Shown in pieces: positions 35,270-50,963 of a stretch of DNA of 64,000 nucleotides. A model generated the notes under the pieces. It was not told where the DNA came from. It searched no databases and saw nothing but the letters and a program-made list of their open reading frames with translations. How positions within the stretch are numbered: the first letter of the stretch is position 1; each line of letters starts with the position of its first letter. This stretch comes from a virus (lineage: Duplodnaviria; Caudoviricetes): the IMG/VR virus record IMGVR_UViG_3300029288_000138, positions 1-64,000 of that record; one strand, 5' to 3'. A program made the translations under genes and the position numbers.

Positions 35270-35350
35270 ATTGTTATAATTCATGGGGGGCGAGAATCTT
35301 GCACCTTTCTATTTTTATACTCAATCTAATATTTATATTAGTATAACAAT

Positions 35351-38300
35351 TTGGAGAAATCATTGGTAATCTTAACAGCATTAAATCGTTTGAACTTAGG
35401 CTCTAAACGATACAAAGTAATAGACGAAAATCCTAATTCTAAATATTTTCAAGTATTTGGTTTAACTGACAAAGTATATGGTATAGGAAAGCATTCATTT
35501 ATATTATATGGTTCACCATACTTAATAAAAGGAACTGATATTATAATTGAAATACTTGATATCGAGGGCCAACCAATAGTTTGTCGCGGGGTTCAAGATG
35601 ATAAATCATTGCCTGGCTGACGAGTATGATTTAAAGTAACTAAGGCTCATACATCAGGTATAGCAACTATATCAATAGCGGGAAGTGTTGCTGGACTGGG
35701 AGATACTATAGGCGGTAACCCAAATGCTATCTGACAAAAAACAATATCAATCAATACAGAATTAGCTAATAATAGCGATATAATTTTTAAAGAGACCCCA
35801 AGCTTTACAGTTACTGAAACTATTAGTACTGACTTAGATAAAGATTTAAAATATAGATCTTATGCAAATTTTTATCTAACTGATATGGAAACATATTCTG
35901 GTCAAGTTAATTCGGTCAATGTATATTGTTTAAGTACCGGATCTATTAGTAGTTCTGTCAATCCGTGAAAATTATTAACAAAGAAATCTATTCCAGCAAC
36001 TGCCGGAATTAATGATAATTCTTATTCATTTAAAACTCAAATTAATACTGAAAGAGAAAGAGACTATATATCATTTTATACTGAGTACTTAAATACTTTA
36101 GATGAACCGGCTAAAACAGTAAGTGGATATGTGTATACGGCATCAGTCATTGATACTCTATTTGAGGGGGCTCAAGATTATATTTTATCCGGAGCATTTG
36201 TTGGAGACGGGTTTGTAACAGGATCAATATTCTTAAGCAATACTAGGCACTCTGGTATAAAAATGGCTGGAACTAATTCTGGTTACATATTATCAGTTGG
36301 GTATGATGGATTTCTTAGTGCATCATTAGGATTAACTGGACCTGGATTCTTAATTTATAGTGGTTCTGTTCTACCAAGTAGTGGTGATGGTTATACAGGA
36401 GTTGGTATAGAATTAGTTGCAAACAGTAGTAGTTATTTAAGATACTCTACTAATCCAGATAGATTTGAGGTTGTAACAAAAACAGTTTTTCTAGGAACAA
36501 CTGGTAGTGCTTTTGTATCATGTTCTGATGGTTATTTACAAATATATTCTGCTAATTTTAGAATAGATAAAAATGGCAATGTTTATATATCTGGATCAAT
36601 ATCGGCATCTGAAGGATACATTGGTGGATGACAAATACTATCAGATAGATTGCAATCAACAAATAATAATATGATACTGTCTGGTTCTGGTGTTATTTCT
36701 TCATCAAATTTTTATGTATCTGAAGCGGGAAATTTAACGGCATCTAATGCTTGATTCAAAGGTATAATCAGTTCATCAGAAGGAAACATAGGCGGGTGGA
36801 CAATTTCTAATGGTAAACTAGTATCTAATAATAATAACATGATGTTATCCTCTTCAGGTGTTATCTCATCTTCATATTTCTATGTTGATGAATTTGGTAA
36901 TTTGTCTGCGTCTTCTGGTTGGTTTGTTGGAACAGTGACAGCATCTAGAGTTGTAACAGGTGATGGTATAATATCAAATTGAATATTGAGCCCGGAATAT
37001 TTGTCTGATGCAAATGATAAAATTAAACTACAACCAGCTGGACCATATATTATATCATCTTCTCAATTTCAAGTTGATATTAATGGCGGCCTAACTGCAT
37101 CCAATGCTATAATAAAAGGCAACATTCAAGCCGATTCTGGTTATATAGGAAATTGAATATTAGATGCGGGTAGATTATCCGGTTCATATATTACTATGGA
37201 TGCTACTGATTCTAGAATATTTAAAACAGATGATAATAATGATGCCACCGGATACTATATAGATTTTACTCCAGGCGCTGGTGATAAGTATTATGTAAGA
37301 TTTGGGCCAAATTTTGCTGTATCTTCATCTGGTATTTTAATAGCATCTGGTGCAATTATCGAAGGTGTATTAACTGCATCAGCTGGTTATATAGGTGGTT
37401 GAAAAATAGAAACAGATAGATTGATATCCGATGGGTCACCATATGTTACAATGATATCAAATACTACGGAAAATTTGGCAATTTCAGCCGGGGCCGTTTC
37501 ATATCATCTAACTGGTAGCGCACCGTTTATAGTAACACATGCGGGTGCTATAACAGGATCACAAGTTTTATTTACTGGTGGCAAAATTGGTGGATGAACA
37601 ATAGGAAATAATCTTTCATCAACTGGTATAACTTTGGTACCAAGTGATGCCATAGAATTAGGAACGGCCACCGCATATGATACTGGCAATGGTATATGAT
37701 TGGGAAATGATGGAGCTGCTAGATTTGGTAATGCTGCAGCATCTAGGTTACAATGAAATTTAACTAATATTGAAATATACAATTCAACAAATGAAAAAAT
37801 AATTTCATTTGGTAACACAAATACTATTGCCGGGTGATCGATTACCACTAGCAGCATAAGTAAGAATTCAGTATGTATTGATGCTGAAACTGAAAAAATA
37901 TATGTTTCTAATTCAGGGTATGTAGTTGCAATTGGTAAATATGATGGTTCAAATTATGGTATATATGCTAATGATGGTTCTAATACATTATTTGAAATGG
38001 GAACAAATGGAAATACTATTGCTAATTGAACTATATCCAGTGGTTCATTAAGATCTCCGAGTGATGAAATTATATTAGATTCTACTAATAAAAAAATAGT
38101 AGTTGGAAATAATATTGTAATTGATGGAGCAAATAAATCTATCAGCTCTAATGGATATCAATCTGGTATTAAAGGATTTAATATAACTCCAGAATATGCA
38201 GAGTTTGGTAATGTATCTGTAAGAGGAGAAATTCATTCCGCAGTATTTACAAAGGATATTATCAATGCTGTTAATGGCTATTTAATGATAGCAAATTCAT

Positions 38301-41300
38301 CTATTTTATCAGAATCTATAGATGATGCTCAAACATATATACTAGTTAATGATAATGTTTTTAAAGATAATGATATACTAAGATTTAAAGATGAAACAAA
38401 CAGTGAATATTTATTAATTACTGGTTCTATTAATACTGGTTCGGCTCCATATAAATTTGATGTAACAAGAGATTATGATGGAACTGGGGCAAATGTATGG
38501 TCATCTGGTTCTGCTGTTGTTTCTACTGCTCAATCTGGTAGCGGATATATTTTATTAGATGCTTCTTCTAATTACTCACCTTTTATGGATATTATTATTA
38601 GAACTGGATCTGGTTGAAATGATATAGAAACTAGAGCACGATTGGGAAGTTTAGCTGGCATAACTGATTTAGATGTAGGGCTTTCTGCAGGAAACAATCA
38701 ATATGGTTTATACTCAGATAATGTTTATTTAAGAGGAGGAATAGTTGCCAAGACGGGTTCAATTGGTGGATGGGAAATAACAACGGAAGACATTCATTCA
38801 TCAGGAAGAACTAATAATTCAGGTATTACATTAAGATCAGATTATATTGGATTATCAGGTAGTGGGGCTACTTTATACTTAGGTGCTACAACTGATTATA
38901 TTAAATGAAATGGTTCTAATTTATATATAAATTTAAGTAATTTTGAATTATCTTCTAATAATATTGATATATCTTCTATAAATGCCTCAATGTCTTTGGG
39001 CGAAGGAAAAATAGTATTACAGGGGGATGCAACTAATCCATACATATCAATAAATCAAGCAACTAAAGGATATGATCAAACAGGTGAATTTATTGGATAT
39101 GATTCTGGTGTTGGTAAATTCTCATTAAAAACAGATACTACTAAATACTTTTTATACGATGGAACTGATTTATTTTTTAAGTCTCCTAGATTTGTATTAA
39201 ATAGCGATACCGGATTCCTATCTATTTCTGGTTCTATAACAGCGTCGAATGGTATATTTGAAGGATATATGATCGCCGGCGAATCAAAGATTGGTAAAGA
39301 TGTAGGGGGGGTTGGTTCTAGTGGATTATATCTCAATGCTACAAATTATGCATATGATACTGGAAATTACAGATGGGGTGATGCTACAAATTACTTTTCA
39401 TCATCCGGCAAATTGGTTAGTACTAATTTTGAATTGTCAGGGAGCACGACTTTAAGAATTGGAACAGACAAAATTGCACTAGGTACGAATGCTGATGAAA
39501 TAACTTTATCTGCAGGAACTGGATTTTATACAAACGTTTCTGGGCATTTTAAGGTTGGATCAACAACTGAATATATTACTTGAGATGGTTCAAATTTAAA
39601 TATTTTAACGGATAATATATTCTTATCAGGTAGTAATGTTCAAATTATTACAGAGAATTTCTTATTAGGAAACAATCAAAATTATATCAGTGGTTCTGAT
39701 AATGGGTTAACTATACAAACTAGTAACGCAATCATTAGTGGTAGCAGTGTTATTATTGATACTCCTATATTCTTTTTAGGAGATACTGGTAGTGCATATA
39801 TATCTGGATCAGATGGAAAATTAGAAATAAATTCTACTAATTTTACTTTAGATAATGCGGGAAATATTTATATATCTGGTATAATATCAGCATCTGAGGG
39901 TAATATAGGCGGGTGACAAATATTATCAGATAAATTGCAATCAACAAATAATAACATGATGTTGTCATCCTCTGGTGTTATTTCAGCATCTAATTTTTAT
40001 ATATCTGAAGCTGGTAATTTAACAGCAAGTAATGCAAATTTTCAGGGTATTATATCATCATCAGAAGGCAATATTGGCGGATTTACTATAAATTCTACTC
40101 AAATAAATGATGAAGGAAATAATCTAATCCTGAAATCTAATGGCCAAATAACAGCATCAAATGCACAAATATCAGGTAGTATAGTTGCTGATAATTTAAC
40201 AATAAATAATGATATTCTACTGGGTCATAATCTAGATGTAGCTGCAGGCGGTTCCATTACTAATGATAATGTTACCATTGATGATTCCGGAATTCAAATC
40301 AATAGTGGTTCAATAACATTAGGATCAAATTTCCATGTTGATTTACTAGGAAATTTAACTGCAAGTAATGCTCAATTTTCCGGTAGTATTATAGTACAAT
40401 CTGGAAAAATTGGGAAATGAAATATTGGTAATGATAGTATATATTCTGGTAGTATATATTTAGGGGGTGGTTTATCATGGTACACTTTAGATGCATTTGG
40501 TATTACTCTTGATGGTGGTGAAGTAGTCGATACTGGGTATAATTATTGGATAAGAACAGAGGATAATGATTATCTATTTAACGTCGGTTCTAGTAGTAAG
40601 TATATAAACTGAGACGGAAGCAATTTAAGTTGAAAAGGAAACAATACTGAATTAACTTCCGATGGACAATTTACTGCCAGTCAAGCTAAAATAACAGGTG
40701 ATATAAATTGCAATAATATTACTGCTAATTCAGGTTCTATAAGTGGATGGGTTCTTAGTGATGATTACTTAACTGGGGTTGGTGGGTCGATCAAAACTGC
40801 TGCAAGTGGGCAGAGGGTGGTAATTAACGGTGCTGATAATACATTAAAATTTTATAAGCAGGGATTGGATAATCCGATAATAATAATAGATGATAATACA
40901 TTTGGGGGAGAGCCAGGTATAAAAATACTTTCTGGATCGATTTATATTTATGAAATCTATATAGATAATAATTCATTTATTGGTAGAGGGTATATAAAGA
41001 CAAAATTAAATTTTATTGATGATTTGATGGGTCGTGCAATATGGGCTACCATTAGCGATCCATCTGATTACACATATGCTCAGAAAAGAATAGCAGTATA
41101 TGCGGACGCTAATGTAGATAATGAGGCAAATACTTCTATTCCTATAGGAATTTATGGGTCTGCTGTTACAGCAAATAGCGCGATATCAGCTTGGGCAGGA
41201 TATTTTGATAATGGTGATGTCCTTATTAAAAATTATCTCCGTGTTGGTGGTCTTGCAGATAATATTACAGAAGCATTTGGCATAAAGTTTGGTTCAAGTG

Positions 41301-41791
41301 AAGATACTAATCTTTATCGCTCAGCTGCAAATGTATTGAAGACAGATGATTCTCTGCATGTAGGTACAAATTTAATTGTCACCGGTAGTATTGTAGTTGG
41401 TGATTATTTAGTTTCTAGATGTATTGCCGGTTCAACTGTTAGGAATTCTCATGATGCTGAAACCAATACTGCAGAAGGTTCTTACACAAAATTAAAGACA
41501 ATCACATTTTCAAATGGTTTTATAGGTCAGTTTAGGTGTACCTGACAGATGAAGATATTAGTATATGGTACAGGTTATGCAAAGTTATACAAGAATGGTG
41601 TCGCCATAGATGGTACTGAAAATACTACAACCAATACCAGTTATGAAGCGAAAACAGAGGACGTAACTCTTGATTTTGATTCGACCGATACATTGGAATT
41701 GTGAGCTTATACTACAGATTCTCCTGTCTATGTCAAAGAATTAAGACTCTCATATGATTATAATCCAACAGTGCCTTCTTCGAATAGTTAG
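35351..41791 (+). CDS. Giant tail-fibre-like protein (2146 aa, TGA=Trp)
   Basis: All eight + strand track ORFs share one frame; at least 20 in-frame TGA; repeated SASxGxIGGWxI motif; ends TAG 41789-41791. Confidence 0.8.
36566..36805 (+). repeat. In-frame internal duplication of about 240 nt (second copy 39851-40090)
   Basis: Near-identical ISASEGxIGGWQILSDxLQSTNNNM...NLTASNA segments, offset 3285 nt. Confidence 0.85.
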
Positions 41792-43438: not shown

Positions 43439-43544
43439 GGCTACTGTGGCGAAATGGAAACCGCAAGACCTGAACCCGTACCAGTAGAATATCTACTGGT
43501 GTATCTAAAGCGGCAATGCAGGTTCGAATCCTGTCAGTAGCCCA
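43439..43544 (+). ncRNA. tRNA-like RNA A (non-canonical anticodon region)
   Basis: Acceptor GGCTACTG/CAGTAGCC, D arm, T arm GCAGG-TTCGAAT-CCTGT; the anticodon arm is replaced by about 50 nt with a 9-bp hairpin. Confidence 0.7.
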
Positions 43545-46326: not shown

Positions 46327-46400
46327 TGGGCAATAGTTTAATGGTAAAATCCCGGTCTCCAAAACCGATAGATGAGAGTTCAAATCTTTCTTGCCCGGCA
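46327..46400 (+). tRNA. trnW: tRNA-Trp(CCA) with 4-bp anticodon stem
   Basis: CCGGT-CTCCAAA-ACCGA (C27.A43 mismatch); D stem GTTT/AAAT; G73. Confidence 0.9.
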
Positions 46401-50634: not shown

Positions 50635-50937
50635 AGGTGGGTATCTCAACTGGTAGAGACACGGTCTTTAACTAAGGAGCTTTATATTGGAAACAGTATA
50701 AATGAAAGAGAATGATATCGGTGAACCCTGTAAAATGGCAATACCGAGGGAATAGATTTTTTAATCTAGCCCGTAGAGAGCAGATAATTCTCAACCTAAG
50801 TTATATTTTTGTAATATGGTTAAGATGTGCTCCAGACTACAAACAACTTTTAGTTGGTGGTGAAAATCATAGTAGTATGCAAAACCGTATCGGGCCTCCA
50901 AAGCCTGGGCATGCGGGTTCAACTCCTGCCCCACCTG
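50635..50937 (+). tRNA. Intron-containing tRNA-Trp-like gene with UCA anticodon (exons 50635-50668 and 50880-50937) and a second CCA-loop arm
   Basis: Acceptor AGGTGGG/CCCACCT with G73; D arm TCTC/GAGA; spliced arm ACGGT-CTTCAAA-ACCGT; extra arm CGGGC-CTCCAAA-GCCTG; T arm GCGGG-TTCAACT-CCTGC. Confidence 0.85.
50669..50879 (+). mobile_element. Group I intron (211 nt, trnL/IC3-like) between U34 and C35
   Basis: P1 CTT/GAG; P2 with GAAA loop; P3 GAGAAT/ATTCTC; P4 CGGT/ACCG; P7 GAGC/GCTC; P8 AACC/GGTT; ends ...GTATG. Confidence 0.85.
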
Positions 50938-50963
50938 CGAGTAATTAATAAAAGGAGTTATGT

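Follow-up and report, generated by a model that had tools for sequence, protein, structure and literature searches.

A phage tRNA gene for UGA, split by a group I intron and endowed with a second, CCA-displaying arm

Phages that have reassigned TGA from stop to tryptophan use the codon mainly in virion and packaging genes, presumably in hosts with the standard genetic code, and encode a tRNA with anticodon UCA among genes that keep to that code (Borges et al., bioRxiv 10.1101/2021.08.26.457843; Yutin et al., PMC7886860). In these studies, a suppressor tRNA was detected in only 35% of the TGA-recoded phage genomes, odd structures being suspected, and two 'Jade' phages were found to carry their own tryptophanyl-tRNA synthetase (TrpRS). 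Here, we analyze a tRNA gene at positions 50635–50937 (+ strand) of a 64,000-nucleotide (nt) stretch of viral DNA, referred to as the window, which comprises positions 1 to 64,000 of the IMG/VR record IMGVR_UViG_3300029288_000138. The phage resembles the recoded ones in where it uses TGA and in the setting of its UCA tRNA. Unlike the suppressors described for them, however, this tRNA is split by an intron and has an additional arm that displays CCA.

Phage UGA suppressor tRNAs are already known, and so are group I introns in tRNA anticodon loops. In introns of the latter kind (IC3; Leu.3Ug, CUU/a...g/AAAA), the insertion site follows the third loop nucleotide, the preceding U is engaged in a U·G pair, the intron ends in G and is ~200 nt long, and its P2 and P9 helices are capped by GAAA loops (Williams 2020, bioRxiv 10.1101/2020.01.27.920355). 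The intron in the window shares all of these features, and its family also occurs in other long-armed tRNA genes, but its host gene is a phage tRNA that reads a stop codon and its Rfam score is only 13 bits. A ribozyme is also physically coupled to the maturation of phage suppressor tRNAs in the case of the theta ribozymes, which are similar to that of hepatitis delta virus (PMC10879173). These belong to another ribozyme class, however, and are located beside the tRNA rather than within its anticodon loop, mostly in TAG-recoded phages.

The closest precedent for the second arm is engineered. A pseudo-anticodon placed in the variable arm (V-arm) of a suppressor tRNA raised aminoacylation by recruiting a synthetase domain to the copied anticodon arm, while the tRNA stayed active in translation (Mukai 2020, PMC7590224). 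That design relied on an allo-tRNA chassis and on histidyl-tRNA synthetase fused to an extra anticodon-binding domain, whereas the tRNAs considered here are natural, have an ordinary 7/5 body, and presumably meet an unmodified TrpRS. The class II tRNAs (Ser, Leu, bacterial Tyr, and selenocysteine (Sec)) have a fifth arm in the same topological place, which is tolerated by EF-Tu and the ribosome and read by the synthetase. In those tRNAs the length and orientation of the arm matter rather than an anticodon-like loop, whereas in the two-armed tRNAs the loop sequence is invariant and the 3' linker is longer (mostly 2–5 nt).

In the full-text literature, with subscription journals outside the coverage, we found no description of a natural arm copying an anticodon loop, nor of a group I intron interrupting a suppressor tRNA. 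The original prediction for this locus, made from the DNA sequence alone, had stated that no such two-armed, intron-gated suppressor was known. This stands for the natural architecture in the literature found, but members of the class are present in the supplement of a 2025 preprint (bioRxiv 10.1101/2025.10.30.685624), and a synthetic V-arm counterpart exists in PMC7590224. From comparisons of the gene with its relatives, we propose that it encodes the phage's tryptophan-inserting UGA decoder, that the intron must be removed to create its anticodon, and that the extra arm serves as a pseudo-anticodon for TrpRS. Taken as a whole, we consider this reading probable.

The split gene and the code of its phage

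The gene is in three pieces, all on the + strand, with a group I intron of 211 nt inserted after U34. The 34-nt 5' exon (50635–50668) contains the acceptor strand AGGTGGG, a normal D arm, ACGGT, and the loop nucleotides C32, U33, and U34, as placed by the sequence and by ARAGORN on the joined exons. It is followed by the intron (50669–50879), whose terminal G is located at 50879, and by a 58-nt 3' exon (50880–50937) reading CAAA-ACCGT, AT, CGGGC-CTCCAAA-GCCTG, GGCAT, T arm, CCCACCT, and G73. The first part of the 3' exon (50880–50888) supplies C35, A36, A37, and A38 together with the 3' strand of the anticodon stem, ACCGT, such that the joined loop becomes CUUCAAA with anticodon UCA. The extra arm occupies 50890–50908, at the position of a class II variable arm, and consists of the stem (U)CGGGC/GCCUG(G) and the 7-nt loop CUCCAAA (50896–50902), which is the sequence of the bacterial tRNA-Trp anticodon loop. 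The remainder of the gene (50909–50937) comprises the linker GCAU, the T arm GCGGG-TTCAACT-CCTGC, the acceptor 3' strand CCCACCT, and the discriminator G73, with no CCA end encoded.

The joined exons, 92 nt in length, were called a tRNA with anticodon tca by ARAGORN, under the label tRNA-SeC(tca). Folded to minimum energy, they give precisely the cloverleaf and one additional, fifth arm (−33.7 kcal/mol; z = −2.1 against dinucleotide shuffles), with a 7-bp acceptor stem, a 4-bp D stem, and a 24-nt variable region. The tryptophan identity elements that the original prediction had listed for a complete tRNA frame (A1-U72, G2-C71, G3-C70, and G73) are all present in this cloverleaf, and the UCA anticodon that it expected from splicing is borne out both by the ARAGORN call and by uninterrupted homologous genes that read CUUCAAA. 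The gene is nevertheless not a bacterial-type tRNA-Trp, which would combine the anticodon CCA with a short variable loop, since the spliced anticodon is UCA and CCA is found in the added arm. The second arm had been described as perfect; it is real and conserved, but one G·U pair breaks the Watson–Crick perfection of its stem. The gene escapes both ARAGORN at default settings and the Rfam tRNA model, as anticipated for standard finders. When introns are permitted, ARAGORN does detect it, with a 211-nt intron shifted by one base, but calls it Cys(gca) rather than the Trp(CCA) that had been named as the alternative to a miss. We rejected the Cys(gca) placement because the intron would then end in U, contrary to the group I rule.

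The window belongs to a viral contig of 83.6 kb from IMG/VR, which has a G+C content of 29% and an estimated completeness of 42% and encodes a T4-type major capsid protein, portal, and terminase. Neither near nor distant searches gave a DNA match in the phage GenBank collection. Many of its long + strand open reading frames (ORFs) stay open only if TGA is read through, for example 35342–41791 with 23 TGA codons. The terminase gene has 15 TGA and no TGG codons. When the 15 TGA positions were masked as X and aligned with homologues, they were matched by W in 169 of 270 homologue cells and by W, Y, or F in 223. Conversely, of the 11 terminase columns with W in the majority of relatives, eight hold TGA in the phage. 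Because the terminase TGA positions align with W, the sequence evidence indicates that this phage reads TGA as tryptophan. The contig has 22 ordinary tRNAs, including a tRNA-Trp(CCA) at 46327–46399 with a C27·A43 mismatch and only four anticodon-stem pairs, but no second UCA tRNA, which agrees with the original prediction that the phage requires a decoder for UGA as tryptophan. The split gene is located in a TGA-poor block together with the tRNA array.

The label given by ARAGORN raises the question of whether the product could instead be a serine-accepting or selenocysteine-type tRNA, for which the long extra arm combined with G73 would also be fitting, as both are serine-type features. However, bacterial tRNA-Sec has an 8/5 branch and a 6-bp D stem, in contrast to the 7-bp acceptor and 4-bp D stem found here, the true Sec-type tRNAs recovered in the scan described below form a separate group without a CCA loop, and TGA aligns to W rather than to S or C. 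We therefore attach next to no likelihood to this assignment.

The second arm in this and other tRNA classes

Among intron-bearing UCA tRNAs, a fifth arm is present in the window copy and at the loci L108, L112, L116, L110, and L115, and the loop of the arm contains UCCA in all six. A scan of intron-less genes that was blind to the arm yielded 53 distinct long-armed tRNA(UCA), of which 39 have UCCA and 31 have UCCAAA in the extra-arm loop; the remaining ones are nearly all of the Sec type (G1 and a longer D stem) and lack UCCA. Pooling all scans gave 48 distinct two-armed tRNA(UCA) sequences, although this pool stems partly from patterns demanding TCCAAA, and the unbiased figures are those of the arm-blind scan (39/53). 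Within the pool, the loops are GUCCAAA (21), CUCCAAA (19), and close variants, with U-CCA invariant, and they are carried by 34 different versions of the 4-bp stem, 94% of which is paired compared to 58% after shuffling (none of 2000 shuffles was as high). G73 is present in 46 of the 48 members and A1-U72 in 37, both being tryptophan identity elements in E. coli and B. subtilis (PMC9976931). We define the class by a CUUCAAA anticodon loop, an arm of 4–7 bp with a 7-nt loop N-U-CCA-A-A, a linker of mostly 2–5 nt, a 7/5 body, and G73, and the window copy shows every one of these features. The constancy of the U-CCA loop over 34 different covarying stems in 48 distinct genes establishes the CCA arm as the real feature that the original prediction took it to be. 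Both the intron and the arm recur with covariation in many unrelated viral contigs, far beyond chance. A further pattern, GTAGTANGCAAA...TCCAAA, gave only chance matches beyond four loci already known, and the gain in ORF length around the relatives when TGA is taken as sense, a crude measure that proved too noisy for use, had a median of 1.39 at two-armed loci, with still higher values for GC-rich controls.

Two-armed genes are also found outside viral contigs. A scan of cellular genomes with a pattern demanding UCCAAA returned mostly true tRNA-Sec genes with a chance match, and few real two-armed genes of the tryptophan type. The latter include two in contigs of Coriobacteriia/Phoenicibacter metagenome-assembled genomes (MAGs), at L386:4024–4119 (−) and L373:4597–4692. 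The neighbours of the L386 gene are ordinary chromosomal genes, encoding a glutamate symporter, a glycosyltransferase, UDP-galactopyranose mutase, and phosphotransacetylase, two of which have in-frame TGA codons; the two-armed design is thus not confined to phages. According to a recent preprint, UGA is read as tryptophan in Eggerthellaceae, a family within Coriobacteriia, and a term search of the preprint found no mention of tRNA arms or loops.

Two further tRNA classes show a corresponding arrangement. The first was noticed among the fetched loci as a GAUAA arm and concerns tRNAs with anticodon UAU, for which an arm-blind scan of viral contigs found 58 distinct long-armed members (L405–L516). 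Their extra arm has a 7-nt loop of the form N-(A/U)-GAU-N-N, mostly CAGAUUA, which copies the ordinary isoleucine anticodon; the stem is 4–5 bp long in 51 of the 58 and occurs in 25 different versions that are 97% paired, compared to 57% when shuffled, and the discriminator is mostly A73. Examples are L163:11311–11401 and L074:6358–6455, and L163 carries both a two-armed UCA and a two-armed UAU tRNA. The second class emerged from a scan of the same kind for anticodon CUA, which gave 61 distinct long-armed amber suppressor tRNAs (L517–L613, e.g., L519, L520, L523, and L534), 53 of which have the loop N-U-(C/U)UG-N-N. The commonest version, CUCUGAA, is present in 28 genes and copies the glutamine anticodon loop. 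A motif-blind tally, which took from each extra region only the middle triplet of its best hairpin with a 7-nt loop, gave CCA for 30 of 53 UCA tRNAs, GAU for 51 of 59 UAU tRNAs, and CUG or UUG for 28 of 61 CUA tRNAs. In all three classes, the arm thus displays the anticodon normally used for the amino acid that would be expected at the unusual codon. TrpRS and glutaminyl-tRNA synthetase (GlnRS) both rely on anticodon bases as identity elements (PMC9976931). Isoleucyl-tRNA synthetase (IleRS) tells its tRNA apart by the wobble base N34 (PMC11685878), and a UAU tRNA is charged poorly by the E. coli enzyme (PMC3575796).

One member of the CUA scan, L613, departs from the glutamine pattern in having a GUCCAAA extra arm, a copy of the tryptophan loop, and may decode UAG as tryptophan. 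The same arm and anticodon loop are present in tRNACUA-44 of the 2025 preprint, which gave 56,217 relative fluorescence units (RFU) at UAG (bioRxiv 10.1101/2025.10.30.685624).

Charging of the tRNA and the proposed role of the arm

In the supplement of that preprint, 31 phage tRNA(UCA) were tested for UGA suppression in E. coli extract with no added synthetase. From the supplement sequences, we assigned 13 of them to the two-armed class; none of the tested tRNAs has an intron. All 13 are strong suppressors, with 26,699–58,947 RFU at UGA compared to 5,403 without tRNA and 69,124 for wild-type GFP, whereas of the other 18 two are clearly active and 16 remain at or below 11,695 RFU (bioRxiv 10.1101/2025.10.30.685624). 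Since all 13 are active, two-armed tRNAs are evidently accepted by the processing enzymes, EF-Tu, and ribosome of E. coli and by one of its resident synthetases. The preprint itself centers on a one-armed tRNA dependent on a phage TrpRS. The AP1 and HF2 tRNAs, both one-armed, are inactive unless a synthetase is added, and are charged by the TrpRS encoded alongside them in those phage genomes (bioRxiv 10.1101/2025.10.30.685624). Term searches of its text found no discussion of the extra arm. In contrast to the 'Jade' phages, no TrpRS-family gene was found on the 83.6-kb contig or in any of 25 phage records with a two-armed tRNA, 14 of which have a completeness of 90% or more. Charging must thus fall to host enzymes. 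The presence of TrpRS fails to separate the classes, as it is also absent from 11 of 11 phages with one-armed tRNAs.

In the mechanism that we favor, the primary transcript would carry the small group I intron between U34 and C35, as in the classical tRNA-Leu(UAA). Self-splicing, with the U·G pair marking the 5' splice site and the terminal G the 3' one, would join CUU to CAAA and thereby make the anticodon UCA. The mature 92-nt RNA, to which the CCA end would be added later, is predicted to have a normal 7/5 acceptor/T branch, A1-U72, G73, and the fifth arm. The UCA arm would then read UGA on the ribosome, with the extra arm tolerated like a class II variable arm, whereas the extra arm would present U-CCA-AA, the loop normally read by TrpRS, to the unaltered host enzyme so that a tRNA with U34 can be charged. 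Both splicing of the window copy and its charging with tryptophan are predictions from its sequence and its relatives. The role of the arm in TrpRS recognition is somewhat favored by the evidence, mainly because the displayed triplet tracks the expected amino acid across three tRNA classes. Together with the lack of TrpRS in all 25 two-armed records, this speaks for the original suggestion that the CCA arm lets an unmodified host TrpRS charge the tRNA. The engineered V-arm demonstrates that such a design is feasible in principle (PMC7590224).

Several observations weigh against this reading. The screen left the arm unaltered and did not identify the amino acid inserted by the two-armed tRNAs, and two one-armed UCA tRNAs were active in the same extract. 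The arm is also not indispensable in nature, as one-armed, intron-bearing UCA tRNAs occur in phages that likewise lack TrpRS. Furthermore, the loop of a variable arm lies off the anticodon contact of TrpRS in an ordinary L-shaped tRNA, such that a different docking or a rearranged fold would be needed. Finally, the intron scores 13.1 bits with the Rfam group I model RF00028, well short of the gathering threshold of 50, and none of 10 homologous loci passes this cut-off, nor does any Rfam family reach gathering level over the element. A covariance-model check had been proposed with the original prediction; by this score it came out negative, yet the group I helices covary across eight homologues. 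None of the RF00028 seed sequences is bacterial, according to Williams 2020 (bioRxiv 10.1101/2020.01.27.920355), and failure of the homologous introns at the cut-off fits a seed set of this composition.

The arm could also have been kept for a reason unrelated to TrpRS, for instance as the target of a modification enzyme or of a protein of the phage, as a decoy for a host anticodon nuclease, as a structural brace, or as a relic of duplication. Such a role would be in keeping with the fact that the arm is not universal among phage UCA tRNAs and that one-armed UCA tRNAs that have A1-U72 and G73 can be active in E. coli extract. A relic, however, would not hold U-CCA-AA invariant over 34 different stems, and neither a decoy nor a brace predicts that the triplet should track the amino acid of a reassigned or rare codon in three unrelated classes. 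We regard this group of explanations as rather unlikely.

The original prediction had further considered that the RNA might alternate between two folds, with UGG read by the CCA arm and UGA by the UCA arm. Both arms do have the size and loop of an anticodon arm, and the 3–5 nt that link the extra arm to the T stem are similar to the variable loop of a class I tRNA. Yet the phage already has an ordinary tRNA-Trp(CCA) at 46327–46399, and by standard wobble U34 also pairs with G, so that a UCA anticodon could already read UGG. In the parallel isoleucine class, the nucleotide preceding the triplet is mostly A rather than the universal U, which argues against a use in decoding, and an arm jutting out between the D and anticodon stems would be unprecedented on the ribosome. 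We found no support for the alternation, and consider it very improbable.

Returning to the proposed role as a handle for TrpRS, the parallel classes raise the possibility that natural pseudo-anticodon arms are a general tRNA design, in which one hairpin presents to the ribosome an anticodon that the host synthetase copes with badly, and a second one presents to the synthetase the standard anticodon for the amino acid in question, thereby splitting decoding from identity. The pairs would be UCA for UGA with CCA for TrpRS, UAU for AUA with GAU for IleRS, and CUA for UAG with CUG or UUG for GlnRS. We judge the case for this generalization to be evenly balanced. If it is true, it would constitute a natural answer to the recoding problem, in which a tRNA with an altered anticodon keeps its old anticodon loop on a spare arm for the synthetase, and phages as well as some recently recoded bacteria, such as the one represented by the Coriobacteriia MAG, could change the meaning of a codon while leaving host synthetases untouched. 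It would also provide a portable design rule for engineering suppressor tRNAs and for annotating recoded phages and bacteria. Part of the missing-suppressor gap, with a tRNA detected in only about a third of the recoded genomes, would moreover be explained by intron-split genes that are invisible to default tRNA finders.

The intron, its splice junction and its probable mobility

The intron in the window has the helices expected of a group I intron. P1 (50666–50669/50676–50679) contains U50668·G50677 at the 5' splice site and is followed by P2 (50681–50689/50694–50702), P3 (50708–50713/50787–50792), P4 (50718–50722/50743–50747), P6 (50748–50750/50770–50772), P7 (50778–50782/50827–50831), P8 (50794–50796/50818–50820), P9.0 (50835–50839/50872–50876), and P9 (50858–50861/50866–50869). 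P3 and P7 pair over a long range, as is typical of group I, and both P2 and P9 are capped by GAAA. The intron has no ORF of its own; a 78-amino acid ORF at 50712–50948 crosses the intron and the 3' exon, and has most probably arisen by chance.

Homologous introns in other viral contigs were reached via the core word AAGATNTNNTCCAGACTA, and a second pattern gave 19 loci with CAA after the intron. Eight short members were aligned and the group I helices written on the alignment, amounting to 365 cells for 46 pairs in 10 helices. Of these cells, 93.4% are paired, and 30 of the 46 pairs have changed on both sides, with covariation in P2, P3, P4, P6, P7, P8, and P9. None of 500 shuffles reached as high a value, and sliding the partners reduced pairing to 33–47%. 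The GAAA loop of P9 and the U·G pair at the splice site are found in all eight introns, although the rest of P1 is less clear in a second subfamily (L095, L100, L110, and L113), and the terminal G is invariant in these eight and in the 19 further pattern matches. The covariation supports a group I fold, and self-splicing of the window copy is what this fold would predict. The original prediction is thus upheld in that the tRNA is split after U34, at the position of the tRNA-Leu(UAA) intron, by a 211-nt group I intron.

Some relatives of the tRNA lack the intron entirely. Uninterrupted genes of the two-armed class read CUUCAAA, and the joined exons of L116 are 95% identical to a continuous gene in L349 and 92% identical to one in L331. 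The match between the L116 exons and the uninterrupted L349 gene fixes the junction as CUU|CAAA and shows that presence of the intron varies between close relatives. Members of this intron family are likewise present in one-armed UCA tRNAs (L100, L095, L102, L111, L113, L024, and L065) and within other tRNA genes with a long variable arm, and several copies contain HNH endonuclease ORFs. The sporadic occurrence of the intron in near-identical genes and the HNH genes of its relatives make it appear to be a mobile passenger, which would have landed in a conserved loop, rather than a purpose-built gate or a designed timer.

The UCA anticodon, and hence the altered code, depends on splicing all the same, and the original prediction had regarded the tRNA as splicing-gated. 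If the gate were purpose-built, regulated splicing would turn on UGA reading only late in infection. This would make sense of a UCA anticodon that cannot exist before splicing and of the location of the gene in a TGA-poor block with the tRNA array, and would have a parallel in the theta ribozymes that adjoin suppressor tRNAs in recoded phages (PMC10879173). Close relatives of the same tRNA without the intron, as in the comparison of L116 and L349, argue against such a purpose, as do the one-armed UCA and other long-armed tRNA genes that harbor the same intron family, some with HNH ORFs. A proposed late-promoter word, TATTTATA / TATAAATA, occurred at chance level, with 29 matches to TATTTATA compared to 29.9 expected, and scans for sigma-70 promoters and terminators gave nothing above shuffles. 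We consequently see a purpose-built gate as improbable, and prefer the view of the intron as a passenger whose removal the tRNA would nonetheless require.

A few of the related genes have peculiarities of their own. The 98-nt tRNA(UCA) of L325, which is of the tryptophan type, has an extra region, GGTGAAAAGTTGTAGTAG, that resembles the end of the intron family from P9 to the terminal G and may be an intron remnant. Unusual T loops are present in the 3' exons of the intron-bearing UCA tRNAs L110, L111, L113, and L115 (GGCAGUA, AUCGUCA, AGCGUUA, and AUCGUUA), and the D loop of L110 (UUUAGAA) lacks the usual GG. On another viral contig, a ROOL RNA (299 bits) and an abiF RNA motif at L013:6054–6628 (−) adjoin an intron-bearing tRNA gene.

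Elsewhere in the window, a tRNA-like gene at 43440–43542 scores 35.7 bits over 103 nt with the Rfam tRNA model and is called Phe(gaa) with a 14-nt insert by ARAGORN when introns are allowed; in its middle is an 8-bp hairpin, ACCAGTAG-AATAT-CTACTGGT. The T4-type portal gene, at 66681–70172 of the genome (L372:2682–6170), is split by an intein with a NUMOD3 motif and contains seven in-frame TGA codons.

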